NCBI GenBank assembly: GCA_035084275.1
Contig: CM068758.1
Coordinates: forward strand, 434,001 to 498,000
Reading direction: 5' to 3'
Source of the DNA: Hydrolagus colliei
Lineage: Eukaryota
Length of the DNA: 64,000 nucleotides
The translations under genes were made by a program, and so were the position numbers. The stretch's first letter is position 1. The number at the start of each line of letters is the position of its first letter. This document shows, piece after piece, positions 3,001-51,900 of the stretch. The notes beneath the pieces were generated by a model. The model searched no databases and had not been told where the DNA came from. It was given only the letters and a program-made list of their open reading frames with translations.

Positions 3001-3956
3001 CAACTGAGGACAATTTCCTCCCTGGAGTAAGTGATGAAATCTTTCTGATCCACAATCAGGCAAGCAATCAGGAACTGGAGCCATGGTTGCTGTTGATGCT
3101 GTTCTTGGTGTTTGGTATTTTGGTGTATTTGGGGTGGAATGTGCAGCCAATGGAAATATTTTCCCTTTTCTCCCACAGAGATGCAGGAGCTCTAGATATT
3201 TCTTTGTGCAGTCAGTCAAAGAAGAACCTGCTTTACCAGAAAGCTGTTGTTGCTTTGAAGGCTCAGAATATTAACCCGATCCCCCAATTTCAACTGTTAA
3301 AGTCGTACATTAGTAAGTCTCGGAATATTTACCTTTCATTCTTGTCCACTTCATCCATTCGGCCTTAGTTGAGTTCACTGAGTCTTTGTCTGTAAAACAA
3401 GAAACTATTTCAATAGTTATATTAAACATTTTTTTCCTACTTTATAAACAATAATAACTTGCCTTTTTGTCAAGCCATGACTTAGGATATAGCGTATGGC
3501 GGAGCTGAAAGCGGAGGTGGTTCATATACTGTGTTAAGCTGATGGCTCTGATTTTTCCCTTCAGGTGGAGCGAGACTGGTTGATCTGCAAACTCTGGCAA
3601 ACCACACAGTCCATATGGATTTTGCAACCTTCAAGACACTGAATCCTGAAGAAGTGACGGTTGGTACATGGACAATATGTTGGCATCACTGTGGTTGGGG
3701 GGGGGGCATTTCTTTAGCTGCTTCCCTTTGTCCTTCTGTTGGTTCCCTTTGGCGACTCTATGAATGACAGAGATTTGTTAAATGTTTCTCTTTTAGAATC
3801 TGACAGCTGAGAACCTGATTGACTTACTTGGAAGTAACCTGCCTGCACTGATAACTGGATTCAATGAAACTGTTGTGATAGTTTGGGTGAATTCACACTT
3901 TGTATCTGAAGTCAGGAAAGTTGGGCTTACGGGAGGAATTCCAGATCCTCCTCTAG
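1..3956 (+). CDS. Mesothelin-like domain 1 (first exon truncated by the window)
   Basis: Exons <1-57, 288-373, 566-692, 852-1042, 1405-1492, 1696-1810, 1931-2103, 2468-2614, 2899-3026, 3179-3312, 3565-3659, 3797-3956. For example, 852-1042 encodes [43 protein letters not shown], resembling mesothelin GVRGSLLSEADVRALGGLACDLPG..YG. Confidence 0.9.
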
Positions 3957-27900: not shown

Positions 27901-30900
27901 CATTAAATTCAGATGATTTTCTAATAAGTACATGACACTATTTTTGACAACAGATATATTTTATTAAGGATCAGATAAATGTAGTGCTCTATAGTTTTAT
28001 GTATCTTAATACTGTACTTTTCTGTTTGACTTTTCCAACAGAAACTGTTTTATGTGAAGCCAGAAATAGGTAAGTTTCTTCTGTTTCCCGCAGTGCCGTT
28101 GTCCTCACACTCAGTCCAAAGTCACAAAGACTTGGAGAAGTCTCTCTCAACAATATGGCTAGATTGGTGATTAGGCAGTGAAGCACATGGACATTACAGA
28201 ATCCTGCCTCTGTTATCAGTCACAAAACCCACCTGTTTAACCGGTATCCTCTGTTTCCTTACAGTTCAGCGGTGAATGATTTCCTGATGACCCTCAACAG
28301 GACCCAACTCTGCAATGTTGCCATTATAGACTACGCATGTGCTCGGGTAAGCTGTGTTCCGCTCTAGAATTCCACACAACAGTGTCTTCCTTCACGCGGT
28401 TCATCCACAGGGAACAATGTTGTAGTCCTTCCCAACTTTCTTGGTTCCCTATACAAATGTAGTCAAATTGTTGTATCATCTCCGCCTGTCGAAATAATAC
28501 CTCTGATCGATTGTTTTCAGATAACTTAACAGTTTCCATTATTTGTCAACCGATTCCTTGCAGATTGAACTGCTGGCAAATCTATCCAGTTATGACGTGA
28601 CTGCTCTGTTTGACTGCTACACTCGCTCAAAGGCTTTGAGGGTCGCAGATGAAAAACCGCTGACTCTGTTTATTCAAAAGCTTGACAGAACCACACTTAA
28701 CCATGCGTTGGACATGTTTAATAAAAAGGTAAGCCCTTATTGATTCCATACTGTAGGGGTACTACTGTAAACTATTAAACGCCTCCTTACTGATTCACAT
28801 TAAACTTATTGGTGTGTTTCAGACTTTAAATATGTCTTCAATTGGTCTGGAAAGCAAGACAACGTTCTTTAACGCCTTGTGGGAGAATGTGAAGCTCAAC
28901 GTGACCAGCCCTGCTCTCCTGGCCAAATGGTTTCAGCAAAGATTCAGACCATTCATTGCAGGCATTCCTCAATCAGTCCTGACTGACCTTCTGGTGAGGA
29001 ATGTCACATGTGATGGATACCAAGCAGTGTAAGTCTATTGTTTTCTCTTACAATCACCTGGTGCTGGGAATTGCAGAACAATCCTGGGTATAAACAGTGA
29101 TGGAAAAGAAGGAAACATGGAACAATAAACTGACTTGTGCTGTCAATTTGTCTTCACTTAGTGTGAAAGGCCTGAGTGATGGATTTGGAGAGATGCCACT
29201 GCCAACGAGACACACCATACTGCAAGTCTGGATCCTTAGATACCTGAACAGCACAGGTAACCTGGATCCAATCAGTATCTGTAAATCAATCATTTCTTTC
29301 ACATGTCGGCAAACGCCGAGTTTGTAAACGCACAATAGATAACCTTCTTTGCCATTCATCTCCAGGTGCTGGCTGTATCAGCAACACCAATGGCTCTCGA
29401 GACTGGCTGGTGAAGAATTGGGGAACGTTCAGCAAACTGGCTGATATAAAGCATCTGTCGGACTTGAATTCCAATTTCAGCGCAGTAAGTGACTGATGCA
29501 CTTTGGGTTTTTGAAGATAATGACTGGAGGAACATGGTTTGCCTTTCTGATTTTTCAGTTGTCATTTACACAATGGCTGAAGTGGTAGGAGTGGGAGTTC
29601 ATGATTGATACCGAAAAGTAAATAAAATGAATTATATAAAGATTTCTTGAAATATTCAATTAAAGAATAATTTGAGAAGTTTGGAAAAAAAATAGTGGTT
29701 CAATTGAAGTGCTATGTGACAAGAATGAACAATGTCACTCTTTGTCTGAAGAATTTGGAATTTATAAAATATTGCTTTTGTTTCTTAGAAGTATTTGGTG
29801 TCCTGTAGCTCAGTTGTTAGAGCATTCACCTTACAAGGAAGAGACCTGGGTTCAATTCCTGGCATGTCAGGGCGAACTATTGGGCAAGTTTCCTTACTCC
29901 ACATGCCTGAAAATCCCTGAAAAGAAATTGGTCATTTCACTCCAAGACTTTTCGTTGGAATCTGCTGTGCGCTATTGGGTGCCACGTTTCGCCCACATAT
30001 ATATAATGAATTCACTTTGCAGTATATTCTGTGAAGCGCTTTGAGGCACAGTCTAGAAGATGTGAAAAGCGCTACGTATATCAAATGCAAAGGTTATTAT
30101 CATTATGAAATATAAACTTGTTGAAATAAGAAAAAAATCCTGTTGTTTAAACTTTCTCTTGGGTAGAAATTGTAGAAATAGCACAACAAATATTATTTTG
30201 CAGTCAAATAACTTTGATGGAACATTTTTTTCTCTGATAGATTGATGCAGCACAATTGTTGACTGCATCCCAACTTGGGGAGTTCACTGGAAGTAACGGA
30301 ACACTGAAAAGTGCTGGTGACGTACACAAGATTTTGAAGTACATCACAGGGGCCGCTGTTGCTGACTTTATTGATACATTCACAGATGCTGTTAACAAGG
30401 TACCAAAATCTCTTCAGTTGACTTATTTACTGGTCTATTATTGTCTTTGTTTCTGCACCCATCTTTCCCTCCCTCTCTTCCTTACCCTCCTTTCTCCCCC
30501 CTCTTCCTCCCTAACCCTAACCCATCCCACCTTTCCCTCCCTCTCCCCCCTTACCCTCTTTTCCCCCTTTCTCCCCTGGCACCATTTTTGCGATTGTTTG
30601 TGGGGACACTGCTGTGCGCAATTTGGCTGCCGCGTTTCGCCCACAAGTATACAGTCGACTTTCCTGCTTTTCTTCCCCCTGCCTCGACCCCTCCCCTTTT
30701 GCTTCTTTACCCCCTTTTGCCCCTAGTCCCACTTCCATGACTGATTGTGGGACACTGCTGTGCGCAATTTGGCTGCCACGTTTCGCCCTCTAATATACAG
30801 TTACTTTTCCTACTATTCTTCATCCTGCCCTGATCCTTCCCACCCTGCTCTTGTCCTACCTAACTGTACAGCGCCTTGGGACGTCCTCTCGACGTGAAAG

Positions 30901-33900
30901 GCGCTATATAAATGTAAGTTTTGTTTGTTGTTTGCATTGCTCCTGGAGCTCAGTGGTTAGAGCACTCGCCTTGCAAGTGAGAGACCTGGGTTCGATTCCC
31001 GGCAGGCCAGGGCAAAACCGTGGGTAAAGTTCCTTACTCCACACACACACGCCTGATAATAATCCCTAAAAAAAAATAATAATAATAATTTGGTCATTCA
31101 ATCCAAGACTGTTTGTGCGTAATTGGCTGCCGCGTTTTGCCCACAAATATACAGTCAATTTACTTTACAGTACATTCTGCTTTGGGAGGTCTCGAAGTCG
31201 TGATAAGATGCTATATCAAATGCAAGGATTATTATTACTAATGCTGTTTTCTCATAATCATTTTCAGAACAATGTGGCACTGCCCTCTGAGGTCAGAACA
31301 ACTTTACTGGGAGAGATTTTGAATCGCACTCAGTTGATTCTTTCAAACGCAAATAACAATGAGCTGCATATCTGGTTTGGCAGAAGGCTGCCACAACTGC
31401 TGTCAGGACTCACTGAAGACTTGGTGCCTTTAGTCTTTGCCAATCAGAGCTGCAACGCATCTCAAATCATGTAGGTTTGATGCAGACTATTTGTACCGAT
31501 TTAGAGATTAATGAGAGTGAATATGGAATTTGAAGCATTTGCCATTTTGTGCTATTAAATTCAACTCTTGGGTTGTTGTGGACTTTTATTTATTTAAAAT
31601 TTAGTCTTTTCCCCTGTAAAACAAAAACAAATTCTGGGGGTATTTGGAATGTGTTGTACTTGACTGGCCCTACTGTTACTTCATTCTAAAATGTTTATTT
31701 TGTTGTATCAAATGCAAGGATTATTATTAATTCTCAGCCAACATCAGGCAGAATTCCTCTCCTTTACCCATACCAATTCACTGAAGGAATAATGACCCAC
31801 ATTTCATTTATTTGGAGAGTATTGTTCATTGATATGATTTTGTTTCATTTTCATAGTGTTTCTTCACTGAACTCAATCAAACGAATGCTGAACATCAGTA
31901 TTCAAAGAGACATATACACAACAGTATTGGACTCTACTAAAGGTATTGTACAAATCTTGGCTTTATTCATTACCATAATCATTTTATTTCAGCCTTGATT
32001 GGCACCCAGCATCTCTTCAGGTGTTGGTGTGTTTTTGTATTGGTAAAATCCAATTTTTCCCAGTAGTGTGCTTTCCTCCTTAAATTGATCATTACAGTTC
32101 TTATTTGTGTTTGGTTGTGTATTATTTCTATGAGACTCATAACTTGGGACATTTAGACATTTATATGTTTAAACTGATTGAGAGCAGACTATTCACAAAA
32201 TTACACCATTGTGTCATTCAAATTATTGCTTCAAAAGTAACAATTTTTTCTGTTTTATCCAGAATTCCCCCTTCAGTGTTATGAAAACAATTACGTTACT
32301 TATCTAAACAGAACCTTCCAAGATTTCTCTCATTTTCTAATTCTGACGGATGTACTTTCTTTGGTTCCTTCCAACCGTTTTGTTGAGGTAAAAGAAAATG
32401 ATTTTGTCCTGAAAGGGTTGTGTGCATGCGTGTGTACGTGTGTGTGTGTCTTGTCCCAGTCCAACGTGACTAACTTGAGCTGCTAGTAAATACCTGAAGT
32501 GTAGTTGCTTCTAAATTTTAAAAACTTGTAATTTTCCATTGAAGCCACCTACATTCGAAACCCAACCAACTCCACCACAGACTATTCCACAGTCCATTGA
32601 TTACAGCCATCCCCAAATATCACCTTCCCAGCCATCCCATATCTGTTTAAACAAATCTTATTCCCCAATTATTTTTCCAACTCTTGAATCCCTAAAGTGG
32701 TTTCTCATGTATGGTTATGTGCGAGCCAGTCCACTCTTGAATCTCATTTCTCTGCGAGAAGATATTTTTTTCTCATCTAGGTTCCAACCCATTTTGCTTG
32801 AATTTAAAAGTGATCGGCTCTCAAAACTGTTGGACCCCCAATGGGGCAAAATATCACCTGCTATTTATTTTGTTCAACCGAGCCCTTTCCATTTCTAAGC
32901 ACTTCAATCGAACCAGCCCTCAGCTTCTATTGCACTGGAAACATATCTCTAATCTAACCAGACAAACATTGCAGGCCCAATTTTGAAGGGTTACAACAGT
33001 GTTTTATCATTTTTGTTCTCCCAAAAGTTAACGGTTTGATTGTTTGACACACTCATCAAAGCTTCCGGTGGGTGCACATTTTAAACATCAATATAAGTAG
33101 TAACTCCTGTATTTTTCTAGGTGTTGAATGCTGCTGATCCCAGAGCTATAGCTGACCTACTAACCCTGCCCGGATTCATCAATGACAACAATAACCTGAC
33201 TGTGCTGTTAAAAAGCTACGAATCCACTGAGAGACTGGGAATATTTATCGACAGATTCAATCAGAATAGCCAAGGCGTAAGTCGCAAATTTGTTTTACTT
33301 TATTTGAACAATTTGAGGTGTGATCTGGAAGAGGAGAGTGTATAGTACATGTCAGTGGGACAGCAGAAGTCAGGGCAATTCTGCACCAAATGAACAACCA
33401 TGCAGCACTTATTGGTGTGAAGAGGCATATGCAGAAAAGCTCAGATTTAACATGGATCAATCCAAGGGACAGATTGTTCATCATTTTTAATTATGTGGAG
33501 CTCTTGTAGCTCAGTGGTTAGAGCACTTACAAGCATAAAACCTGTGTTCAAATCCAGGCAGGGGAAAAACCTCTGGCAAGTTTCCTTACTCCACAGATAC
33601 CCACACAAGCCTGATAATAATCCCTCAAAAAAAATAACAATTGGTCATTTCAATCTGCGACTGTTTGTGGAGGACGCTGCTGTGTGCAATTGGCTGCTGT
33701 GTTTCTACGGTCAATTAACTTTACAGTGTATTCTGTGAAGCACTTTGAGAGACAGTCTGGAAGACGTGAAAAAGCCGCTATCTCAAATGCAAGGATTATT
33801 TTTTATATTATTAATGAATGTTTCCCCTTTCAGAGTAACCTGTCAGACTCTACTCTCGCAACCATCATGGATGGTTTGTGGACTCAGTTAGTCAGCAACT

Positions 33901-36900
33901 TCTCTGAGTTGAGCGATGCAGAGGTTGAGAAGTGGCTTTCCAGCAGGCTGCAACCATATCTGACGTTTATCACCACCAAACTCCTGACTTCCCAGGACAC
34001 GTTAGGCATCCAGTGCCTTCCCTACAGGAAAATGTAAATACAATCAAAACCACTCTAACTGAAGCCATCTCTCTAGCGTATTGTATTAGATACTGCAAGT
34101 GCATTGTATACTGATACAATGCACTTGTATACTGACTTTTACGTTTGTGCTAAGCGGATAAAAGTGAGAAACTAAAGTTACAGGAAAAAACCTACTGTAA
34201 TTTGGACTGTTTGGGGGACAGCTGCTCTTTTCTGCTCATATATTATGAGTGTTTTCAACACATTTATCCATAATTTTCCTTAAAGGAAAGACCACCAATG
34301 TTAATATATTGGATTTTCCATTTAGTGTGCGAATGCTGAGTGATCGCTACAATGATTTTACCCCAGCCAAACGCACCGAAATCTATAGTGGAATCAAAAC
34401 TTATCTGCTACAAGGTAATACATTTTTATTTAACGTATTTCATAGATCTGAAATTAGCTGTCTTTGTCATTTTATGGAGTATATTCACAACTTGTATTTC
34501 CCCACCACCCCCCATTTTTCAGACAGATCTACTCAGGAAGCTGTTATGTGTGCTTATCTAGAAAAACAAATCAGTTTGATTATCAGCTGGAACATGCTGC
34601 AGTTGAAGTGAATCATTATCCAGTTCCTTAATTAGAGTTCTCAACATTTTCTCTCCCCAGCTCCCTTACACGTTTGTGTTTGATTTTCCTTTGCACTCCC
34701 CTGTAAAAAAAAATACCATAAAAGCCTATTAAAAGGGTGAAATATTATGGAAGCCACTAGAACTGGAATAAGGCTCTGCTACAAGTGATCTTATATTGAA
34801 ACTATCTCCACATTTGCTCATTTAGTTATGGTTCCAGAGGAGGACACATTTTAGTCTACTGATATTGTTCAGGGTACATGACTACAGTATTTTGTCACTA
34901 GATTTACCATATTTGACTGCCTTTGTAGGCGAGTGAGGCTTCTCAAAGCAAAAGAGAGTGTTATCTTAATGACAACCACCTATATTGAAAAGAGTAGATT
35001 TTGATGATACGTTTTAAAAGTATGAAGTACTATTCACTCCCAAAGTTTTATTTTCCATTCGTACCAGTATCTGCTGATTAAAGTATTTTCTTTACTCTCT
35101 CTCTAGCCGGTCCCAAACCAAAATGTTACAATGCAACTGATCCAATTCTGAACTCCCTTGCTTGGTTTGCTAACTATCTGGGACTATTTTTCGAACAAGT
35201 AGCACTACCTGATCTTCAATCCTTCTCTGACAACGAAACAGTGGTACGTTTATTATTTTACTTCACTGCAGGACAGGCTCCTGTAGCTCAGTGGTTAGAG
35301 ACACTTTACCTTGCAAGTGTGAGACCTGTGTTCGAATCCAGGCAGATCAGGACGAAACCGTGGACAAGTTTCCTTACTCCACACACACGCCTAATAATAA
35401 TCCATCCAAAAAAACATAATCATAAAATTGATCATTTAATCCACGACTATTTGTGGGGACATTGCCGTGCTCAATTGGCTGCCGTGTTTCTCTCACAAAT
35501 ATATTGTCAATTCACTTTACAATATATTCTGTGAAGTGCTTTGAGATAAGATGTGAAAAGCGCTATATCAAATGCAAGGATTATTATTATATTATTATGA
35601 AGCACTATTCCTCGTGGATCTGGTTGCATGAATCAGCCATTGTATGACTAATTTTAAAAAAGCCAACAGTTGAGTTCATACATTATTTCTAACTTCTTTC
35701 AAATTTCCTTCACCTCAGCTTCAACAATTTGCAGCAGACGAAAGCAACCTGAAACTGATTGAGCCTATGATATTATCAGATGAAGTTATAAGCTATTATC
35801 TTGATTTGGTGATTAAAAATAATCCAAATGTCAATATCCTCAGGTATGTCTTGCTTGTTGGTCAATCTTTTTGTTCCCATAAATTGTTTTTTTTTTAGGA
35901 AGTTGGTTATTTATTGCTAATGCAAATGGAAAACCTGAGTGAGAGTCCAAAATCTATATTGTTTTCTAGTTGTAAATTGGTGTAACTATTAGCAATAATA
36001 ATAACTAATATATCTCTAGAGCTTGCAAAGGATTTAAAAAAAATCTTTCTGTGGATATGAGTTCCATTCCCTGTGATAATGAGGAATATGCATTTCAAAT
36101 CTGTGTATATCTGTGAACCAAGTACAGTACCACTAACTGATCTTCAGCCCTTCTCTAACCATAAAACAGTTTTACGTTCACCATATTTCTCCATTATAGT
36201 ACAGGATTTAATTGCATTTTGCAATCTGCATATGGACAGGTTAATAGGATGGCTATAACTAATTGAATTGTATTAAAAAGTAAATTTGATTCTTTGTTCA
36301 TGCCAGTAAAATGCAACCTTTTCTGTCAATCCTTTTATTTGATTCACTGAATTTTTAAAAAGATCCATTTTATTCTAAATGAATGCATTGTACCACGGAA
36401 ACACACACTAATAAAATAATTGGCTTTTATATCACAGTATTCCAAATTCTCTGATTTGCGATGTCACTGAAACTCAACTAACTCAGACCTTAGATACAGA
36501 GGGGACTTTGATCATCAATGAGAGAATAAGCCAAGTCTGTGGATTTGATTTGTCATCCAACACCACCAACATTCAAACATTGACAGATGAACAACTGGAG
36601 GTAAGTGAGAGAGGACCCTCGATGGTAAATTGGTCTATCTTAGATCATCTCATTTTGATTTTTATATGTATACTGCGTGATTTACCTGCTGTATCTAGCT
36701 TTAAACAGATTTTAAAAAATCAAATATCAAAGAATTAAAATGTCAGCCTTTTTTTTCTCACAATACAGATATTAATGTCCTGAGTACTAACACCTAAATT
36801 ACATAAACAGGCATTCTTCCTTTTGTCTGCTAGGAAGTGCCATAGCATAACACTTTGCTCGTCTACTCCTACCCAACGTGAAAGACGCTCTATAAATGTA

Positions 36901-39900
36901 ATGTTGTTGTTGTTGTAGTTATTCGTACCTTATTTGAAATGGATGTTCATTGAAGTTGCTGACCTCCATATCTTGTTTTCCTTACAGCTCGCCACAGCTT
37001 TAGTGAGTAACATTAATAACTTCACAGCGGACGTTCTGACAACTTTGGGCCAATCAGTTGTTGGAATCTCATTGACACAGATTGAGATTACTGGAGACAA
37101 TGAACTGCAGCAAGCTTTGCCAAGCCTGAGTCAAGCCACAAGCTGGGATATTGCACAGAGCAGTTTGATTGTCAACATTTTAATAGACAATGGTTTTGAG
37201 GTAAGATCTGCGTACACTGCAAACCCAAACTTTATATTAATGTACAAATTAATGAAGAATTAATAAAAGAATAAATTGCAAATCATTGGAATTAGATCTT
37301 TCTGGACTTGCATTTGGTCTAGTTTGGGTCAAGCCATAGTGCAAGAAATGAACTCTGGTTAAAGGTGGTACGTGATTGTTCCAGCAGACTGCAGCATTGC
37401 AAACCATCCTAATGGATAGAAGCAAACTTCAGTACTAGTTATGCTGACTCAATTCACCCTTTTGCAACTAATTATTTGAATTTTGGGCCCCTGGAGAGTT
37501 CATCTCTTTCCACAATGCTTTGATGTGAGGATGTTTCTTAACCCAGTATGCTATCCAGCACCTGGATAATTTGTTTTCCTATTCCAATCCACCTGTTTCT
37601 GTCTGTGCCTGTTTGACTAAACAAGTCAGGTACGATGTACGAAGTAACGAAAGGGCAGAGTGAACAAAGGAGATTTCCACTGGAAAAACAATTTTAATTA
37701 GCCAATTACAGCAGAGGGTGTCAGGCTGTTTATATAGGCTGTATAATCCAAGTTGAACAGAGTGACCTAAAGGTGGATTTTACATTGCGCACTCAGTTCT
37801 TTTCTAACACTAAATTCAAAACGCAAAGTGAGTTGTGCATGTGTTGAAATTGTGCTGAGCCCTGATGAGCCGCTACAAATATCAATCCGTTTCCCCACTC
37901 CTCGTTCTGGAATCAATACAACCTTGTTTCTCGTGGGGAGAAATTGTTTGTTATACTAATTTTTTATTTCCAATAATAATCTTCAAAATGAGGGACGGCT
38001 TTCAATTGCGTTTCTTTTTAATTCTAGGTCAACAACGAACAAGGTCTCGAAAGTCTGGGAGCTCTGGTGGCCGGTGTCCAAAACAGTGTCATTGAAAATA
38101 TTAACTCTACAGTCATCCTGAATACAGTCTCCAATCCTACATTCGTTGCACATCTACAAGCTGCTCCGCAAATCATCCAATATACAGTCGTTCAGAAAGT
38201 AAGTGATCACTGAACGTACAATAACATACATACACACGACCCCACCCCACCAGATCTGATGCCGAGACTTAGTTAATGACGCCGACTATAAACGCTATCT
38301 GCCTCTAACCCAGAATGTGGGGTGTATATTCTCTCTAAATGATGCTGTGTTTCATTCACAATCAGATTTTGTTCACGGAAAGTAACCCTGAAAATTCTGT
38401 GAAGAAAGTTCCAGCTGCGCTTGTCAAAGACATCCCACTTGTATTCCTATCCTCAGGCTTGGTTCTTGAAGATGTGAATAATAAAGCTTGGATTCCTGGT
38501 CAGGTGAGTGATCCTGTGCTTTAATCTCTGTAATAGAATGGTAACGAGCACCTTGTCGTAATGTGGTGGGTTGGATCATAATATTATAATAATAATACTA
38601 ACTGCACACAGCGGAGTCCTCACAAACAGCCGTGGATTGAAATGACCAATTTTGTTATTATGGTGTTTTTTGGATGCACTTACATTCATTTACATATACA
38701 TGCTTCAATACACCCACTCGCTCGTGTTAAATTGAACGCTGTATTATTGTAAAGGTCAGTCCTACATATTAATGTTTTCTTGTTCTCCCGATAGGCAACT
38801 GTGTTTTTCGAAAGTGTAATAACACAGGACAACAGTTATGACATGTAAGTGGCTTCTTCTGGTTCCACATATTCCTCCAGTTTCTCCTTCTCTTCATCTA
38901 CAATGAATTAAAAATATATTACCGTATATCTCCGCGTATAAGGCGCACCCGCGTATAAGGCGCACCCCCCGTTTTTGACCTTTTCTTGGTGAAAAAAACC
39001 GGAAGCATTTTCAATGATATTGCCGGCAGAACGGAGGAGAGACAGGAGAGACAGGTAGGTAGGGAGAGAGAGAGGCAGGCAGCCAGGGAGGGAGGGAGAG
39101 AGAGAGGGAGAGAGGCAGCCAGGCAGCCAGGGAGGGAGGGAGAGAGAGAGAGAGGGAGAGAGGCAGGCCGGCAGCCCGGGGGAGAGAGAGGGAGAGAGGC
39201 AGGCCGGCAGCCCGGGGGAGAGAGAGGGAGAGAGGCAGGCCGGCACGCAGGCAGGGAGGGAGGGAGGGAGAGGCAGGCAGGGAGAGAGAGAGAGCGGCAG
39301 GGAGGGACGCAGGCAGACTGGGTTCGGCAGAAGGTAAGCACAGCACTGAAGTCCGCTGCTGCTGCCGCTGCCCGGGCGGCCGAGGCCGAAGCCCCGTCAC
39401 CCGCTCCCCCCCAACCCCCGCCGGACACTGACCAAACCCCGGCTGACAGCGCGCCGGCCGCCCCTCCTGTTTACTGTATTTCCGAGGCTCAAAATTGCTT
39501 GTACCTGCGTATAGGGCGCACCCCCAACTTTCGAGATCTTCCGACCTGAAAAAAAGTGCGCCTTATACGCGGAGATATACGGTATTTGGTTTACACCAAC
39601 GCCCTAGGGGTTTGTCGGCCTTCCCAATTCCTCCCTCCACAGGTTGCAGATAATCCAGAAATCTGCGGCCTGTGTCCTCTACTGCTCGAAGCTTCGTGAC
39701 CCCATCACCCCCATCCTCACCCGACTCTATTGCTCTCCAATTCAAGATCCTGGTCCTCACATTCAAAGCCCTCCACAAGCTCGCCCCCCACATCCGTGAC
39801 CTATATCCGTGACCTTCTAACATCTCTACCAACCTGCGAGCCCACTCCGCTCAGCAGGCCCTGGCCTGCTCCATGTCCCCTGACCCACCCCCACCATTGG

Positions 39901-42900
39901 CGGGCGAGCCTTTAGCCACTCTGCCCCCAACCTCTGGAACCCCATTCTGCAATCCCTCTGCCTGACTGTCCAGTGCTATGGGACGTCCTCCTGATGTGAA
40001 AGGCGCTGTACAAGTGTAATTTTGTTGTTGTTTAGCTATTCAGCCTCTGTGCTCCAAGGCTTCAGCTGTGGTGCAGTAAAGTCAATGAATTCAAGTGATT
40101 TCATTCAGCTCATTCACGCGATGAACAACAACCAGGCCGTACTTGATGCCGGTCAGGTGAGCTTTTGATCCGTTTATCAAATATGAAAACTACACGGTTG
40201 AGATATGATAGTGGGTGGTGGTGGGGGGTGGTGAGTGTGGGATGAGAGAGTACATTGAGATCTGTCGCACTCAGGTGATTAGAAGTCGTGATCTTTTTGC
40301 TACGTGTTTGTTTTCATTGGGACAGTTGCATTTTGCTCTCCATTAAACTTTCCTAATCGCTCAAGGTCACGAGGGCTCTTCTGGTTCTGAGGAGGTTCAC
40401 CTCAATCTGAATCATTGGTGGCGGGATGACCAACCTTCCTCTTTGGCTCATCATTGGGGGTGTCCTCCTCAAACCCTGCCAGCTAAAGCAGCAGCCAGGA
40501 AGGCAATCCGGGATGGATAAATGTTGCGAAGGTTTCCAATGCATCCTATTGATGAGCTTCTCAGTTAATATGAGTGGATATTTCCAATTCATGTGTTGCT
40601 TTCCTTTTCAGCTGAGCTGCATAGCTTACAGACTCTCTTCTAATGGAACGCCATCAGATATAGACAACCTCCCCAAGGGCACTGTGCTATTTTTCAAGTA
40701 TGTTAAGAATTATTCTTAAAATTTCCTTTTACATCTGAATCTTGGACAGTCATCGGTTCCACAAAGTATTGTGGAATGGTTTGCTTTCTTCAACCTGTGT
40801 GGCTTTTTCAAGGCTACAACTAGATTATTATGGCTGGACAGAAAATCACCTTGCTTTGCCTATAGGAAAATGAAAACAGTTGATATTGTTGTAGAGCACT
40901 TAAGTGATACCACATACTCCAGTGCGCAAATTCATTGGATATGTGCACTGAGCCATGTGAAAGGTACGATACACGTGTAATTTTGTTGTTGTTGTGGACT
41001 GGAATGTTCGCAGTTTTTACTTTGCTCCTCTCTACTGAATGTAAATTGGGAACTTACCACCCAGTTGAGAGTGGCCTCAAATATTGGTCCCAATAATTCA
41101 CCATTATTTGTTTTAAAAAAAAGAAAATCAATTCATAAAACTCAACCTTTTTCTATTTAGTTCTACAGAATTCAGCACATTTTCGAATTGCAAAAAGTTC
41201 TTCCAAGTGGTGGGAAGGTCAAACATTAATATCTTGCAGAAAGAATCAGAAATAAGAATCGGACTGTTGAATAATGCCAAAATTTGCTTGGTGAGTTCAA
41301 TAATTTTTAATGCAATGATTGTGTCACAGTTCTCAAGTAGTAGTTCAGTCAAACTAAAAAAAAAGTGAGACTATGTACACCTGTGAAGATCATTTCACAA
41401 TTGAATTGATGACTCGGAAAATGTGTTTGAATTTTAGGGAGTGTCTGGCACAAATCTAACACAGGAGAACGTCAGGACATTGGGTGCTTTGACCTGTGAC
41501 CTCGACGCAGCCATGATCAAAGGATCTGATATTGCCATTTTGGAATCATTGAAAGCATGCCTTTCATACACAGAGAGTCAAAAGTTAGCAATCGAAGAAC
41601 GATTGGGCAAAGCAGATTCTAAATATGGGTAAGTACAGAGCTGTACACCTTCTGGTTTCCTGCAAATATTATCAGAATGGTTGAATGTTTATGTTTCATG
41701 TGTCATTGTGGGCTTCATGCACAGTGTAAAGGGGTTATTAACAGTGCAAGTTGTCTTTAACAAAATGTAAAGTCTGTTATGCTTAGATTAACCATCCTCT
41801 TGCCTACCGAGGTGTTTTCCAATGATCTATGTTTACTGTAACCAGGTGAGCTTTTTTGGAAAGGGACAAAATGTCTGTGGCAAAGCTATTAATCCAATCA
41901 TTTCTGATTTCTTTATTTGACTGCAGTCCATTTTCCTCATGGACATCATCCACTCTGAACAAACTGGGTAATCTTCCTCTGGCTTTGGCCTCTAAATGGA
42001 GTCTAGTAAACACGGTAGGTTTAAAGGAATTTTTGAATTGATTTCCATGTGAGATTAGCAATACCTTGTTCAAACTGCAATAGGCTCCTCAAGCATTGCG
42101 TTAACACATTTCCTGATATTTGAAACAACAACAACTTGCATTTACCCTTCACCCGAGGTAGCGCCATAGAGTGCTTCAAAATACTCCTTTGGCTAAAGCT
42201 GTAGAGAAATATTTTCAAAAGTAGCAAAAAAAACATGGTTCACCTTATCCACTAATCAAACATTTAATGTCATTTTTTTTAATACGATTTGCAAGTGTTT
42301 GTATTTTCTACTGTTGTGGAGTCCTGTAGCGTGCAAGCAAGAGATCTGGGTTCAATTCCTGACAGGGTGAAATGTTGGGCAAGTTTCCTTACTCCCATCT
42401 GTTTACCTAACAGTAAATAGGAATCTGGTTGTTAGTCAATTAGCGGATCTCTTTTACAGTTACTATTTTACAAAATAGTAACACAGTGGATAACGTGAAC
42501 TATTTTACAAAATAGTAATACTGATAAATTGGTCACTCAATCCATGATTGTTTGTGGGACACTGCTGTGTGCAATTGGCTGCCACGTTTCACCCGCAAAA
42601 TATTCAGTCAATTCACTTTAGAATATATTCTGTGAAGCGCTTTGAGATGTTTGAAAGGCGTGGTAATGCTCTACATCAAACGCAAGGATTATTTTTATTA
42701 TTATTATGATTGTTATTCAGGTTGTCTTTCGACAAGCTCTTCCAAGTTTTATCAAGAGAGTGAAAACATTCCAAAGGCGAACTGAACAGCTGATTTTCAT
42801 GACGCAACTCCAGCTACATACAACGAGATCGAGACGCGCAGCATGTATGTTATCTTTATAAAATTGTGAGATTGATTAAATAAACAGTGTTATATATACA

Positions 42901-45900
42901 GTAGAGTATATTTCATGAATGATTGTATAAGAAGTACTGTTCGTTCTTTGTTAGTCAAATGGAGTTTCAATACACAAGCATCCCGGGAAAGTCCATTTTA
43001 TGGGTGAGATCTTCCTTATGGTAATGCATTTTGTAATATTCACATTTGTAGAGCAATTTGTACACAATTGGCTGCCTCGTTTCGCCCACAAATATACAGT
43101 CAATTCACTGTATATTCTGTGAAACGCTTTGAGACACAGTCTAGAAGATGTGAAAAGCGCTGTATCAAATGCAAGGATTATTATTATTAATTTATCGTCC
43201 CCTAACCCTTCAGAAAGTTTTGTTATCAGCAGAATGAATATGTCACAAAAAGTGTGTGACTAAACAGCGAAATGCCTTTCCTTGCGATTATTATTGTTTT
43301 TTCGTTGGCTTTGAACTGTAGTATCAATACAATATTTCTTCTCAATAGTGAGCACAATAAGTACTATAGTTAAGAATTTTGATACAAGTTTTAGCCAATA
43401 AGCTTAAGCAAGCAAACCGAAAAATGCCATGAAATGTATTTGTCATCGACTGCTGTTTGTCGAACCTCACTGTGTGTAAAAAATTTTTTTAAAAAAATTG
43501 GGTTCTGCGCTTTGCCTAGAAATACATATTCACTCTGCTTGATCGCTATTCCCTGTGAAGTACTTTGAGATATTGTTACACCACACTGCGAGATTAAAAT
43601 CAAGGATTATGATGATTATGATTATTATTATTATTATTTGTTTGCAGCTTGTAATGTAAATACGATAACAGCACAAAATATCAATGAACTGACTCCTGCA
43701 CTGTATGCAGCTGATCAACTAGATGCCTGCTTGAGTGATCCTGTGTTGAAGGATTCTGTGCTTTCACTGGGAAATCTTAACTTTGATTCCTCACAGCTTT
43801 CCATTCTGAAAAAACGACTTGAACAGGTAAAAAGTATTTCATAAGGGTTTACAATTTTTAGATTAATTAATTCATGGATTCAAAAAGCAACAATTGGTGA
43901 ACTGTTAATGTACGGTCATTTATATATCAGTAGAGTAGCTCAGATATGGAATTAACAGATAATATGATTCTTGAAATTAATTTGAAAGGTTGGGAGAATC
44001 AGATTTTATTGAAGGTAACATTTATGTTTGTTGTGTGTTGGAAAACAACAAATGTTTATCATCTCACTGATCTGTCCTGTCTGTATATACTTATATAGAT
44101 ACTGTATATCCTTACTCCACACACCAAAATAATCAGTTCAAACAAAATAATCCGTTCAAACAAAACACATAATAATAAACTGGTAATTTCAATCCATGGC
44201 TGTTTGAGTGCTGTGTGTAATTGGCTGCCGCATTTCGCTCAGAAATATACAGTCAATTCACTTTATTGTACATTCTGTAAAGCGCTTTGAGACATCTCGA
44301 AGACGTAAAAAATGCTATATCAAATCCAAGGTTTATTATTAAAGTGCATACAGTTCCATCTGAAAAATATATGATCCTAGCACCTCTTCAAATCATTGAA
44401 TCATCTCAAAGAGCTCAAAATTTTGTTAACTATCAGTAGCAGATTATGACTTGATTAATAGACAATTTGGCTATTAAATATGTTGGGGGTATCACTGATT
44501 AAATAGCTGTAGAAAGCACTTTCTCTGTTGAGTTGCTCTGGGCATCTTGTACACTGTTCACTGAATTACACTGAAGTAAAGAAAATGCATTTTAGTATCT
44601 TGTTCAAACTCAGAACGAGCAGGCATTACAAAGAGTGATAAAATTCAAATACTTACTAAATATTATAATTGCAACCGAGGCATACTGTATTCGTAAGAAA
44701 TAAAGTACTAGGCAAAAAAAAATTATATATGATTTTGATTTTCCTAAAAACAGATTTACCCCAACGGGATACCAGAAGAGCAGATTAATCTCCTGGGAAA
44801 CATAACTACTGCATTCAACATCACAGAAGTTAATATGTGGAACATCACTCGAGTTGACACTCTTACAGGACTGCTGACGAGCCAGTTAGAAAGCACTATG
44901 GTAATAAACTCAGTGTGGTTTCTGCATATTCCTAAATGTGTGAAACAATACCAACAGATAACAATGTGGGAGTGGATGCGCGCTCATATGTTTGTGAGGA
45001 AATGTACCGGTAAGTACAGTAAAAGCCCGTTTATCCGGCACCCTTGGGATCTGGCCAATGCCGGTTAAATGGCATGCCAGATATTCGGACGGCAAGTTGC
45101 CAAAAACCAACACAAAAAAGATTAACTTATTTTTAAACATACCATATTAATAATAGACTAAATAATAACAGAATATTGTATGAATACTTACCAATAAAGC
45201 AATAAATATCAGTCTATAATTACAGCATACAATCACAAAACAAATTTCTACAACGGTGGAGGCTAGTGGCTTAAAGTGGTGCTGTCGTTTTTTCCTCTCT
45301 TTTTTCTTTCTCTCCCTCCTTCCCTCTCTCTCTCTTTCACACACACACTTAGTCAGTCTGGCATCTCAGTGGCTCCAAACCCAACTCCCATCCACTCCTC
45401 TCATTTTCCATCTAAATTAATCAACTCACACCCTCTCTCTCCTCTGCTCTCCCCCACCTATCTCTCCCCCTCCCACTCCTCTCTCTTTCTCCACCCCCAC
45501 TCTTTCCTTCTCTTTCCCCTCCACCCTCTCTCTTCCTGCCTCTGTCTCCTCCTACCCAAACCCCACCAAAATAGCATATAAACCCACGATACAGTCAGGC
45601 TACACAGGCAANNNNNNNNNNNNNNNNNNNNNNNNNNNNNNNNNNNNNNNNNNNNNNNNNNNNNNNNNNNNNNNNNNNNNNNNNNNNNNNNNNNNNNNNN
45701 NNNNNNNNNNNNNNNNNNNNNNNNNNNNNNNNNNNNNNNNNNNNNNNNNNNNNNNNNNNNNNNNNNNNNNNNNNNNNNNNNNNNNNNNCAGAAAAACCGG
45801 AAATGCCACTACCGGCAGCATTCAGAACTAACCGTACTGTACTCTCATGCAACAATCGACTCATTCAATTCGCCACCGCGATTGTGTGGGATAACATCCA

Positions 45901-48900
45901 GTTATTGGAATGGGCATGGATTCCCTGGTAGAATACAGTGTTGGTATGTGGCCACAGTTCCATGTTTGATTATAGTAATGCCGCTGAGCAAGGTTCAAAC
46001 TTCCTACACACCGTGACTGCACGTGTAGACCTTCAAGCAGTTAGTTATAAAGTGATTTGGGCAGAAATTTTAACAGAGGAGAAATTACAACAAGTATTTG
46101 CATTGATATAATACCCTTCACACAGCATAGTGTCTTGAAGCACTTAAATTAAAAGTTCTACTGAACATATTGCACAGAGGTAAATCCTGAGAATGGGATT
46201 TAAATATTTCTCAAGGAAGAATAACTTTTTGTTTGGATACTTTTCTGTGTAATAATGACAAGTGACCTGTCCTTCAAATCTGCGATTTGGTTTTTCAGGT
46301 AAAAGCCATCATTACAAGATTCCTAAATCTGGGCGGACAACTGAATGGAGTGGCTTTGAAAGCTATCGGTGGGGAATATTTGTGTACTCTGGACTTGAGC
46401 CAACTGGCAACAATCTCAAACTTGATGTAAGTTTTGATATCTTTGTGTTTGAATTTGCCGTTAGTTTTAACCAAGTTAGTTTTATGTTATTTTTAAACGT
46501 TTAAAAGACTTTCAATCATTTTTTTAATGCTGTGTGTATTTTTAAGATCATTAATAAAAACTAATTACTGTACATCACACATCTACCTTAACGCAAATCA
46601 AATCTGTTTTTTTCCTCGTTCTCTGGTAGGGATGCGGGAACACAGGATGTTTCCACGTGCACTCAGTCAAAGAAGAACTTTCTTTACAACAAAGCTGTAT
46701 CGGCATCTGCATCTTCACTGAGATCTATTAACAGTGACGCAACCACCTTCTACAATCAAATAAAGTCATATATTGGTAAGTAAACGTTACTCTTGTGTTA
46801 AGCAGCTTGAACTTTTTTGTTAACCATCGGCGGACGAGCCTTCAACCACTCTGCCTTCCCCCAACCTCTGGAACTCCATCCCGCAGTTCCTCCGCCTCGC
46901 CCCCCTCCCTGGCCTCCTTCAAGTCACGTAAAGTTGTGCATTGACCCTATCGATACAAACAATATACCGGTAATTGTGATGTGTGTCGAAAGTTTTAGAC
47001 CTATTATGGTTTAGAATCGACTCCAAATATATGTTTTTAATACTTTTCAATCATGTTTAAAGTTAATGTATGCAGCTTTGCTAACGGAATGCACTTTAAG
47101 AGCTTTTCCTATTTACTTCAGGTGGGGCCCCAGCAGAGGATCTGAAGATTCTGGCCAACCATACTGTCAACATGGACTTTGAAACCTTCAGAAATCTCAA
47201 TGCTGATGAAGTTAAGGTTTGTTACAGTCATCTTCCCGCTGTCTTATTCAGCGCGTAAACCCAAACACACACCATGTAGTAAAATGGCTTCACGGAAAGA
47301 TGCAGGCTGATGGTTGTAACGTGATCTCTTGTCAGTGTAGCCTTTACACGCTAAATACATGACCGATTTGTGAGTCTGCACATCAACAGATTATGTCACT
47401 TCCTACACCCTCCACATGTGCATTGTGTGGCAAACCTTCCTACACACACATCACACACACATATCAAATGCTGGGATTATTATTATTATTTTTAATGTGT
47501 GGTTAAATCGCCACACCCGCGAGTGGGTTCATTTCCCACGCTTTGTAAGTGAACCGATTTATCGAGCGGGTTCTACTGTATTATGAATGAATTGATTTAA
47601 ATAGTGGGAGTGGTGGGGGTGAGTTTGGGGTGGAATTCTGAACGTTTGCGATGTGTGCTGAACCTTTCAAACATTTGTGTTTAAGCTGCTGAACGCTGAG
47701 GAGTTGATAAACCTGCTGGGAGCTTACTTGCCAGCTCTTAAGACTGGAAGAAACGAAACTGTCGTGAGAGCGTGGGTGGATGCAAACTTGGCTTCTGAAG
47801 TGGCCAGAGTTGGATTAAGTGGAGGTATTCCGGATTCAGCAACAACACCAACAACAACACCAGCAACAGCAACAACAACACCAGCAGCAACACCAACAAC
47901 AGCAACAACAACACCAGCAACAGCAACAACACCAGCAACAGCAACAACAACACCAGCAACAGCAACAACACCAGCAACAGCAACAACAACACCAGCAACA
48001 GCAACAACACCAGCAACAGCAACAACAACACCAGCAACAGCAACAACAACACCAGCAACAGCAACAACAACACCAGCAACAGCAACAACAACACCAGCAA
48101 CAGCAACAACAACACCAGCAGCAGCAACAACAACACCAGCAACAGCAACAACACCAGCAACAGCAACAACAACACCAGCAACAGCAACAACAACACCAGC
48201 AACAGCAACAACAACACCAGCAACAGCAACAACAACACCAGCAACAGCAACAACAACACCAGCAACAGCAACAACAACACCAGCAACAGCAACAACAACA
48301 CCAGCAACAGCAACAACAACACCAGCAGCAGCAACAACAACACCAGCAACAGCAACAACACCAGCAACAGCAACAACAACACCAGCAACAGCAACAACAA
48401 CACCAGCAACAGCAACAACACCACCAGCAACAGCAACAACAACACCAGCAACAGCAACAACAACACCAGCAACAGCAACAACACCACCAGCAACAGCAAC
48501 AACAACACCAGCAACAGCAACAACAACACCAGCAACAGCAACAACAACACCAGCAACAGCAACAACAACACCAGCAACAGCAACAACAACACCAGCAGCA
48601 GCAACAACAACACCAGCAACAGCAACACCACCAGCAGCAACACCAACAACAGCAACAGCAACAACACCAGCAACAACAACACCAGCAGCAACAACAACAA
48701 CTTCGATTTACATAGCGCCCTCCACGCCAGACGGCATCTCAGGTGTGTGTGTACGTACGCGCATGTGATCAAAGGAGAATAAAGGTATTTATTAAGTGGG
48801 TTGAATCATCCTGATCAGGCCAGCCTATCAAAAACTCCATGAGAATTAGGACAGCTAAAGGCATCAATGTGTATCTTTTTAGGTTTGTTAGTTAGGGTCA

Positions 48901-51900
48901 CACCAAAAATATTGTTTAATTGTAATTGTGATGTTGTTGTTACTGAGTGTTCCCAGCGATCACTATTTGTCAGAAACTTGTTTTCCTAATATTTCATGTT
49001 TTTGGTTTCAGGACCCATACCAAATTTTTCGGTAAGACTGATTTAAATCTTTACTGCTTCATTATTACTGTATTATTAAAATGTTAATTGCTTTCTTAAT
49101 GCTGGGAATAAATTTGGCAACTGAGAAGGCACAGACTGCCTTCTGATTAACCTGCTTGTGCAGAACTATGGGGAAGGGGGAAATAATAGACAGGAAAATA
49201 CATCAATGACAGAAAGTTATGGTAGCGTTAACTAAAGTTGTCCTACTCCACTATGGAAAAAGGTTCCTGAAGCGTTGCTATAATTCTTTGATTTATCCCC
49301 CAAACTCTCTTAACTTTGCATTGTGTTTGTGAAGATCTAGAGAGAGAAAACAATTGTTTTATTGAAATATCTCATAACTTTGTTCATGGGTCCAGCTGTA
49401 GGTTTATATTACATTGGTCAAAACTGAATACTAAACTTTAATTTACTTTCCTTTCTCGTTAGTGTGGCAACAGCACAGTTAACGGTAAGATTCTTCTTTT
49501 GTGGAATCCTCCTATTTGTAGTTTATTTCAGTATTTCAGTGCTGTGTATAGATTTCCTCAACTTATTTTTCTCTCATTTTTATATTTTAATGCAGTGGAA
49601 ACCTTCTGTGAAAACGTCACCAGGTAAGAAGCTAAAGAAACGCAGCTGATTGATGTGTTTGTGAACTAGACTTGCTTTACTCTCTGTTGTAACTAAGCTG
49701 ACACAGGTTGAGTTTTTCTGCTTTACTATGTCAGCCACATCAAATATATTCATGTGAATGACACGCATTTTTATGAGTCTGATAATATACAGTATAGCAT
49801 CTAATCAATGCACAGCAAAACACAAATACGTACCACAGTGTGTAATTAGAGGATACAACTTCACCGGAAAGCTCCATGTAACTTGGCAAGGAACATTAAC
49901 TATAAAACAATGGCTGAAAATATATATATTTTTTGAATTATGGATTGGTGAGGAAGCTTCATGTTTTTCTGCTAAAAGTGTAAAGGAATACATGTGAACT
50001 GTATTGAACCAGTTATTGAATTTAATGTTCTCTTATTCTCATTTGGATTTATTTCCTGAAGTATGTGACTTATTTTTCCCCTGTAGCGTGGAAGTGAATC
50101 ATTTCCTGATGGCTATTAACGTAACCCAAATCTGCAATTTTACTATCACTGACTATGCATGTGCTCAGGTAAGCTCCAAACTCTATCTAAAGATGTTAAC
50201 TTTGGTTTTCTTTATACTGTACTGTTCTTTTAGCATCCTTTTTTTAAATGCCACTGTACTGAGGCAGAAAGTATTTTATGTGTGGGTTTTTTTTTGCTGG
50301 TGGGGGAAATATAACAACAAGTTTCCTTATACACACCTAATAATAATCCTTCGAAAAATACAATCATAAATTGGTCATTTCAATCCACGACCGTTTGTGG
50401 GGATGTTGCTGTGTGCAATTGGCTGCTTCGTTTCATCCACAAATGTACAGTCAATTCACTTTACAGCATATTCTATGAAGCGCTTTGAGACATCGATAAG
50501 ATGTGAAAAGCGCTATCTCAATGCAAGGATTATTATTTTTATTATTATTATTAAGTGTTGGTTTATGAGGTAAAAATAATAATATAATATACCACATTAT
50601 ACCATAGAGGTACCATAGAATAACACATCATTACACTGAATTCAATCCTCATCAATCAAGAATTCTTATAGTCTTGAAGTCTTTAAGTGAGTGAGATGTT
50701 ACCTACTGCCTTAACCGAATATACATGTCCAATTATCTTCCTTTACAGAATAACCTTGTGGCTAATCTACCTGATGGTTATGTGACTGATATATTTGATT
50801 GCTTCACTGGCCAAAAGGCTGTGAAGAGATCAGATGAAACTGCACTGACTATATTTATTCAGAAGCTGAATGGAATTGCACTTAATAATGCTTTGGACAA
50901 CTTCAATAATAAGGTATTCAATACTCACTAAACTGTGTGTAGTCACGTCATTTGTAAAGGGGGTTATAATATAATTCATTGTTAAGATTCAGTGCCAGCT
51001 TTACCGTTTGTATAATAAAATAAGGCACCACAGATTTGGCAGCGTGATTACGTACATATACTCTGCTCTACTTCTGTGGAGCTTCTGTAGCTCAGTGGTT
51101 AGAGCACTCGTCTTACAAGCGTGAGACCTGTTTTCGAATCCAGGCAGATTAGGGCGAAACCTGGGGCAAGTTTCCTTACTCCACACACACACACACACAC
51201 GCCTAATAATAATCCATCCAAAAAAAACACAATAATTTTAAAAATGGTAATTTCAATCCACGACTGTTTGTGGGGGATGCTGCTGTGAGCAATTACCTGC
51301 CGCGTTTCGCCCACAAATGTAGTGAATTCACTTTACAGTATACTCTGTGAAGCACTTTGAGACATTTGTAAAATGTAAAAAGCTGCCATATCAAATGCAG
51401 GGATTATTATTATTTACTCATTAAAAAGAGAAATAACATCTGTCAGAGGCAGCAGTCCATTGTTAGGTTACCTGTGCTGTAAATTGCCAAGTAAATCATT
51501 CTAGCCTGCGGACTGCTGTTGTGTTGGTGTTTATCGTGTGTCAAGCACAAACACGAGTGAAAACACCCTTTGAAAACTGTAAAACTAACCGTCCCGTACT
51601 CACAAAACCTCCTTCGTTATGTGTTGCAGACTGTGAACTCGTCAACAATCCCTCTGGCCACAAAGACAGCGTTCATGACCGCCTTGTTGGAGAAAGTGAA
51701 GACAAACGAGGACTTAACCAATGCAACGTTCCTAACAAAGTGGTTCCAGGAACGATTCAGGCCGTTTATTGCTGGCTTTCCCCCGACTTTCTTCAACTGC
51801 TTTTTCATCAGGAACACCAGCTGTGATGGCTACCAAGCGGTGTAAGTTGCCATCGGACATTGCAGGGGATGAGATGAAAATGGAGATGTTTTTTTAATTA

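Follow-up and report, generated by a model that had tools for sequence, protein, structure and literature searches.

Does a mesothelin-like protein that has grown into a chain of modules keep the furin-type cut of mesothelin, and if so, in which modules? This question is raised by a tandem mesothelin-like gene of the chimaera Hydrolagus colliei, which we analyzed in a window of 64,000 nucleotides (nt; positions 434,001 to 498,000 of contig CM068758.1). Mesothelin is a prominent target in cancer, and what it normally does and how it is processed are still poorly understood (PMC8946840, PMC13383088); the cut of the human precursor is at R295 of RPRFRR (PMC8946840). We consider it fairly probable that the locus is a giant mesothelin-family gene with an inherited processing site in module 4, outer modules that have long been site-less and sequon-bearing, two likely cuts and the release of a long glycosylated chain. 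The motifs, their register, the open frame, the orthology of the modules and the pattern of conservation are direct observations.

The exons were built by hand from open frames and splice signals. The resulting 130-exon model encodes 6033 amino acids (aa) without a stop and has AG at every acceptor. In an earlier 128-exon model (6019 aa, likewise without a stop), all donors were GT except one GC; this GC, at 61669 in exon 18 of module 5, is the sole non-GT donor of the model. A full module has 32 exons, and modules 1 and 5 are truncated by the ends of the window. Each module, of ~1430 aa, appears to begin with helical repeats, followed by an MPF-like half and then by a half that resembles mature mesothelin. 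We refer to modules 1 to 3 as units, and to modules that lack a basic site in the linker between the two halves as site-less:

288..3956, + strand: module 1, partial (exons 22-32, 481 aa; its start lies upstream of the window)
4243..15855, + strand: module 2, site-less (32 exons, 1426 aa)
16142..27755, + strand: module 3, site-less (32 exons, 1426 aa; 1 residue different from module 2)
28042..48742, + strand: module 4, penultimate-type, with the canonical site (32 exons, 1734 aa)
49012-49031 and 49463-49484, + strand: mini-exons that join module 4 to module 5 in frame, located from the shark junction peptide
49596..63466, + strand: module 5, partial, terminal-type (21 exons, 952 aa; its linker and glycosylphosphatidylinositol (GPI)-type tail lie beyond the window)

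The junction peptide encoded by the two mini-exons matches the corresponding peptides of Callorhinchus milii and sharks. The basic linker of module 4 is encoded as follows:

42721..42844, + strand: exon 26 of module 4, the last of the MPF-like half, with the basic linker (AG/GT ends, 124 nt, phase 0 to 1)
42826..42837, + strand: R-S-R-R, the sole R-x-x-R of the model and a predicted furin/proprotein-convertase site (P4-P1)
43648..43826, + strand: exon 27 of module 4, the first of the mature-mesothelin-like half, with a conserved Cys four residues past P1

Exon 26 of module 4 ends T-T-R-S-R-R-A-A and, with the split codon, the junction reads RSRR-AAS-C; the site is thus present as described in a sequence-only reading of this DNA. 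It fits the R-x-K/R-R consensus (as in PMC13383088) with Ala at P1' and P2', and the count of R-x-x-R is one in the 6033-aa model, as it was in the 6019 aa before the mini-exons were added. The motif alone is weak, because 11.7% of 5000 shuffles of module 4 (mucin-like stretch removed) also contained at least one R-x-K/R-R, at a rate per position of 8.6e-5. What goes beyond this chance rate is that RSRR lies at the homologous position and is kept in orthologues. A K-R pair is found further upstream in both module types (I-K-R-V in module 4, L-K-R-L in the unit exon), in a stretch predicted to be helical in models of orthologues.

Homology to human mesothelin is distributed along the module. 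Among 15 single exons tested, six matched Pfam PF06060, in collinear order (stretches 132-171, 173-232, 361-404, 504-533 and 536-584) and with E values from 8.8e-7 to 0.19; one exon alone passes the curated cut-off. Faint matches to Pfam Stereocilin (E 0.057-0.16) were also seen. Exon 26 itself had no Pfam match, and the single-exon search of exon 27 against PDB gave chance matches only, while a two-row profile of exon 27 gave weak PDB matches at E 0.25 (the N-terminus of human mesothelin, 4f3f) and 0.9. Matches to gp41 constructs in the PDB search were set aside as chance. Exon 28 of module 4 matches positions 361-404 of PF06060 and PDB mesothelin chains. Its alignment with PDB 8cxc ('cleaved form', 327 aa) begins at residue 64, so that 63 residues precede the shared helix in cleaved human mesothelin; in module 4, 62 residues separate P1' from this I-Y-P-N-G helix. 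By this measure, RSRR aligns with the cleavage loop of mesothelin, as the sequence-only reading had it. From P1 to the first mature Cys, there are 4 residues here versus 7 in human.

AlphaFold models were made of C. milii orthologues rather than of the window proteins; the orthologue of module 4 is 75% identical (half-module, 48-row alignment). Its model has a mean predicted local distance difference test (pLDDT) score of 90.1 and a predicted template modeling (pTM) score of 0.80. A helix ends at residue 208, R-S-K-R occupies 212-215 within a coil at 209-225, and pLDDT falls below 50 at 214-216. Based on this model, the basic site of module 4 appears to sit in an exposed, flexible loop. The top nine Foldseek hits of the model are all human mesothelin (E 4.7e-13; TM-score to target 0.58-0.84). 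In the model of the C. milii unit orthologue, which is short by about one exon upstream of the linker (463 vs 515 aa), only 6 residues instead of 10 separate the helix end from the Cys, and there is no low-confidence segment. RSRR of module 4 is therefore probably the processing site of mesothelin, kept by inheritance and placed between the halves in a loop that is short and flexible.

In the units, the paralogous exons differ at exactly this place:

1696..1810, + strand: paralogous exon 26 of unit module 1 (N-V-T at 1798-1806)
13595..13709, + strand: paralogous exon 26 of unit module 2 (N-V-T at 13697-13705)
25495..25609, + strand: paralogous exon 26 of unit module 3 (N-V-T at 25597-25605; Asn is P2, counted from the conserved Cys)

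The three exons are identical to one another (115 nt), three codons shorter than that of module 4, and end L-K-L-H-A-N-V-T-E, with HANV-TET-C across the split codon; as previously described, N-V-T is present and there is no furin consensus at the loop. N-V-T is an N-glycosylation sequon (N-x-S/T, x not Pro) in modules 1-3. By itself, this sequon is unsurprising, a unit having 34 sequons and 18.8% of its 10-aa windows containing one; the notable part is the register, with Asn at P2. Anchored on the Cys, the three missing codons fall upstream of the sequon. Moreover, the outer-module linker of sharks, R-S-N-N-T, is in register with R-S-R-R-A and, because A-N-V-T of the window shares this register, the sequon overwrites P2-P1'. 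With their loop shortened and P2-P1-P1' replaced by a sequon, the outer modules should be skipped by furin-type convertases. The earlier statement that the units are uncleavable is too strong, since human mesothelin that lacks residues 287-295 is nonetheless partly processed, as is mesothelin in cells deficient in furin (PMC13383088).

To place these linkers, homologues were collected with a two-exon profile. A word-seeded search with this profile found nothing among 876 candidates, and a HMMER search without a word index found 128 proteins, of which 30 were looked up by name. The closest relatives are from C. milii, with 69%, 74% and 75% identity to modules 3, 4 and 5, respectively; by eye, these orthologues have a hydrophobic N-terminus and a hydrophobic tail. 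The shark and ray models have 4700-7881 aa and 4-5 modules. With the first mature Cys as the anchor, linkers of cartilaginous fishes were compared in 33 modules (29 from 12 database proteins and 4 from the window). All seven penultimate database modules have the P1 Arg in register (five canonical in register, two R-R-R-I-S-K-R), including R-S-K-R in the C. milii orthologue of module 4. A basic motif is also found in all seven terminal modules: three are canonical, one is R-F-S-R, one has K-R only, and two, from skates, have R-R-S-R shifted by one residue. A linker sequon occurs in 0/14 of these penultimate and terminal modules. Conversely, the P1 Arg is absent from 15/15 outer modules, of which ten have Asn-x-Thr at P2, four have N-C-T at the Cys and one has neither. 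The same-register sequons are N-V-T in window modules 1-3, N-F-T in C. milii and N-N-T in sharks and rays.

The proposed survey of related species thus bore out the difference between penultimate (7/7 with P1 Arg) and outer modules (15/15 without), while the basic motifs of the terminal modules (7/7) change the picture for the end of the protein. Accordingly, the claim that the site is kept only in the fourth domain holds within the window and is doubtful beyond it: module 5 is of the terminal type. Since the terminal module of the nearest relative, C. milii, has only R-x-x-R motifs, module 4 may still hold the sole canonical site.

In a wider, redundant set, from which 21/142 modules were dropped as incomplete, a relaxed basic site is present in 43/52 terminal-type modules whose linker is intact, a canonical site in 21/52 and a sequon in 0/52; the remaining 9/52 have a linker Arg, as judged by eye. 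No rate was drawn from the 48 modules of the 'internal' class because this class mixes tandem modules with long-tailed single modules. The lamprey linker is R-R-R-R. The near-identical, non-terminal tandem modules compared from the killifish Nothobranchius furzeri and the catfish Tachysurus vachellii all have no basic site at the linker.

The site-less state is old. In the trees, modules 3 and 4 each have a different C. milii module as their partner (support 100/100 in both cases). The site was therefore lost before these chimaeras split, and long before the array of units arose. The idea that the loss was tied to the recent amplification is not upheld, as the loss is common to Callorhinchus and matched in sharks and rays; rather, the recently amplified module was probably already of the site-less type. 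Module 5 clusters among terminal modules (100/100). The chimaera units and the site-less modules of sharks and rays come together in the best concatenated tree, with a support of only 42/15, and none of the alternatives to a single site-less clade was rejected by the approximately unbiased (AU) test (p 0.14-0.50, three trees). The shared register of the Asn would favor one origin of the site-less state. By contrast, the site-less modules of killifish and catfish nest among teleosts and have no sequon there, and so arose separately. For the tree that included teleosts, 7 of 44 rows were left out (six modules that were partial or near-identical, and a near-identical one from axolotl); the three trees used for the AU tests had cartilaginous rows only, one with two more left out and one with 21 selected modules.

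What would these linkers do to the protein? We suggest that furin-type enzymes cut a GPI-anchored precursor in module 4 and probably also in module 5, for which a separate basic site, perhaps a weaker one, most likely lies past the end of the window. Because the modules are in one reading frame, a cut in module 4 would free an N-terminal chain of at least 4481 aa, predicted at ~0.5 MDa before glycans and heavily glycosylated; each extra unit would add ~158 kDa and 34 sequons to it. The sequence-only reading had proposed that one cut releases a huge N-terminal multimer; the single frame supports the size of this chain, whereas the part left behind is not small, with at least 1552 aa in the window alone. 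In the two-cut model, the further products would be a middle piece with a mucin-like stretch and a small, membrane-bound, mature-mesothelin-like piece. A cut in module 5 alone would likewise detach the outer modules from the membrane. A glycan at P2 may guard the outer-module loop against back-up proteases, and the long chain would most likely serve as a multivalent extracellular or mucosal filament, the length of which scales with unit number. Cleavage, glycan occupancy, release and function are all predictions from sequence here.

Several observations weigh against this model. In human cells, the 40-kDa mesothelin product persists in all eight site mutants, including the deletion of residues 287-295, as well as in LoVo cells, which are deficient in furin, at a lower ratio (PMC13383088); precursor processing can thus occur without the site. 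The C. milii module 4 orthologue folds as one unit (pTM 0.80); even once cut, the two halves may therefore remain together. The nearest module 5 orthologue has only R-x-x-R, and one ray (Hypanus) has only K-R. Site-less modules are not all devoid of basic residues: an R-R pair just upstream is kept in 4/15 site-less shark modules, and K-Y-K-R-V in exon 21 of modules 2 and 3 (11924, 23824) is a possible alternative cut site in the units. Val at P1' is unfavorable for cleavage. In addition, K-S-K-R or R-x-x-R is retained in three axolotl modules and R-Y-R-R in an internal module of Hoplias, so that the pattern is not a general rule. Finally, for Leucoraja and C. milii the locus stands in RefSeq as several genes, the database proteins of cartilaginous fishes are mostly gene predictions, and the conservation counts of the linker are not independent, as they reflect one or two losses.

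An alternative to two cuts, which we regard as unlikely, is that module 4 holds the only working site, so that cleavage would yield a huge N-terminal multimer and a large membrane-bound remainder made of the rest of module 4 and module 5. It is favored by RSRR being the sole R-x-x-R in 6033 aa, by the canonical R-S-K-R in the C. milii module 4 orthologue next to a terminal module with only R-x-x-R, and by the shifted R-R-S-R of skates and the K-R of Hypanus. However, all seven terminal orthologues have a basic motif, three of them canonical, and the wider set points the same way with its 43/52 relaxed and 21/52 canonical terminal-type sites. Moreover, R-x-x-R is the minimal furin motif.

It is also rather doubtful, in our judgment, that the pattern is a neutral relic, in which an internal module lost its site through a single decay, the sequon is just one among many, the amplification is unrelated, and other proteases cut the loops anyway or the halves stay bound, so that function would be little affected. 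Such a history would fit the density of sequons in the units, the trees, which cannot tell one loss from two, the finding that furin is dispensable for human processing (PMC13383088), and the poor conservation of exon 26 (37% between modules 3 and 4, one of the lowest values of all exons). It fits less well with Asn at P2 in 13/18 site-less modules (window included) from chimaeras, sharks, skates and a stingray, or with a basic site in 8/8 penultimate modules (window included) on both sides of a split >400 million years old. The near-identical tandem modules of killifish and catfish, which also lack a basic site, argue against it as well.

A different concern is whether the modules are made as one chain at all. 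If they were separate genes, or if transcripts mostly ended at an intronic polyadenylation site after a unit, the multimer would not exist as drawn. Read-through past the last unit exon (27756-27782, and likewise in units 1 and 2) adds a few codons before a stop that is overlapped by AATAAA (27777). The C. milii RefSeq model ends in the identical read-through peptide, and the RefSeq division of the locus in Leucoraja and C. milii agrees with separate products. On the other hand, the spacer from the end of one unit to the start of the next module, module 4 included, is just 286 bp long, the phases agree at every module junction, and no signal-peptide exon was found in this spacer. AATAAA occurs within the first 40 nt of only 4/84 introns. 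In a skate cluster, a Logan contig of 10,469 bases encodes a 3067-aa protein that extends over a module junction, and the ratio of these lengths means that the contig must be spliced. Four shark and ray models also join 4-5 modules. We therefore consider it improbable that separate products are the rule; intronic polyadenylation could possibly give secreted, anchor-less chains.

The units form a recent array in the DNA:

1..29512, + strand: tandem array in the DNA (period ~11.9 kb; identity among copies 99.8-99.9%, introns included)

Copy pairs differ by 6-9 mismatches, and the first 5.7 kb of the three copies are three distinct haplotypes. The repeat in the DNA is offset from the protein module: exons 1-6 of module 4 (28042-29512), in which 2/232 residues differ from module 3, fall within the homogenized array, which stops in intron 6, an end that unequal crossing-over would give. 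Four of 12 listed sequencing runs were mapped to 17613-33000. Contig depth was 143-177 in the unit versus 37-40 in module 4 in run X1, which is possibly the source sample, and 204-255 versus 60-65 in run X4, a different sample from a different study, in which the junction from unit to module 4 was at single-copy depth. The ratio is thus approximately fourfold in two samples of two studies. In run X6, from a related organism B, unit pieces had depths of 258-517 versus 23.6 for one short module 4 piece; other unit contigs were lower (61-163), and the listed pieces were at ~11-22 times the module 4 contig. The depth of run X12 was too low to set unit against module 4. Because contig depth is not copy number, about four units here and perhaps more than 10 in organism B are hints only. 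The near identity of the copies, introns included, could suggest an assembly artefact, which is very improbable in view of the three haplotypes in the window, the fourfold depth in X1 and X4, and comparable tandem modules in sharks and rays; the tandem units are real, and the depth hints at about four copies.

Compared with known proteins, the gene shares with human MSLN the order of MPF-like half, basic linker and mature half; it differs in having ~900 extra N-terminal residues per module and at least five modules chained, the outer ones site-less, whereas human MSLN is one module of 622 aa. The closest counterparts are uncharacterized giant mesothelin-like proteins of cartilaginous fishes (Rhincodon XP_048465576, Stegostoma XP_059510198, Amblyraja XP_032896963, Hypanus XP_059834805, Callorhinchus XP_007904336 and XP_042197119). 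In these, too, the outer modules are site-less, the penultimate one has a basic site and the terminal one has a hydrophobic tail; the window differs in having a very recent, near-identical array of one site-less module, a shortened linker and, relative to the C. milii models, a ~290-aa mucin stretch in module 4. The mslna and mslnb proteins of teleosts, amphibians and lamprey also have a long N-terminal repeat region and a basic site before the first mature Cys; they differ in having mostly one mesothelin part, and the axolotl tandem modules keep basic motifs. Otoancorin and stereocilin, the match to which is far weaker than that to mesothelin, are not known to have tandem modules or a furin linker of this kind. 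They resemble the present protein as large GPI-anchored helical-repeat members of the superfamily and proposed binders of extracellular glycoproteins; the lectin idea for the superfamily is a prediction (PMC2628672). A shark 'mesothelin-like protein' is listed in a table of catshark semen proteomics (PMC11083954).

A literature search, with most subscription journals and supplements outside it, found no account of a multi-module mesothelin in cartilaginous fishes; supplements of shark or chimaera genome papers may list the gene. Looking for earlier cases in which a glycan shields a furin site brought up mainly papers on viral glycoproteins. The surprise is limited, because a furin site, a sequon and tandem modules are each ordinary, and the proteins are already in RefSeq and UniProt as automatic, mostly uncharacterized models. 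The importance of the locus lies in the same module occurring in natural site-bearing and site-less forms, with a protease site swapped for a sequon in exact register and conserved. This allows tests of the need for MPF release, of a P2 glycan as a block to the back-up proteases of human cells, and of a role as multivalent helical lectin. Going further, we tentatively raise the possibility, which we do not hold to be likely, of a polyprotein with a cleavage code: modules near the membrane keep the site, the outer ones are overwritten by a P2 N-glycan, and only protected modules are amplified, giving a shed, multivalent, glycan-dense megadalton filament with a length set by the unit number of each species. 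Killifish and catfish would then be convergent, and mammalian mesothelin/MPF would be a trimmed remnant of a mucosal or matrix filament. If true, this reading would be a testable lead to the normal function of mesothelin.

Other features of the window concern modules 4 and 5:

47837..48699, + strand: mucin-like stretch of Thr/Ala/Pro (~290 aa; 21-nt period, 41.7 copies), encoded by the last exon of module 4

This stretch is missing from three C. milii models of the module 4-5 junction and is possibly a lineage-specific spacer. Module 4 spans 20.7 kb versus 11.6 kb per unit module. A dispersed repeat of ~300 bp, with very high genome-wide depth, is found in many introns of modules 4 and 5 (29789-51414). 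An assembly gap of 177 N at 45612-45788 interrupts the intron that separates exon 28 from exon 29 in module 4, and the frame is consistent on either side. In module 5, K-K-K-W-K-R-N in exon 19 (62622) is, like K-Y-K-R-V of the units, a weaker basic motif and a possible alternative site. By eye, exons 8-10 of module 5 (53738-56270) look like exons 4-6, and not exons 8-10, of modules 3 and 4; the order of the N-terminal repeats is not the same between module types.

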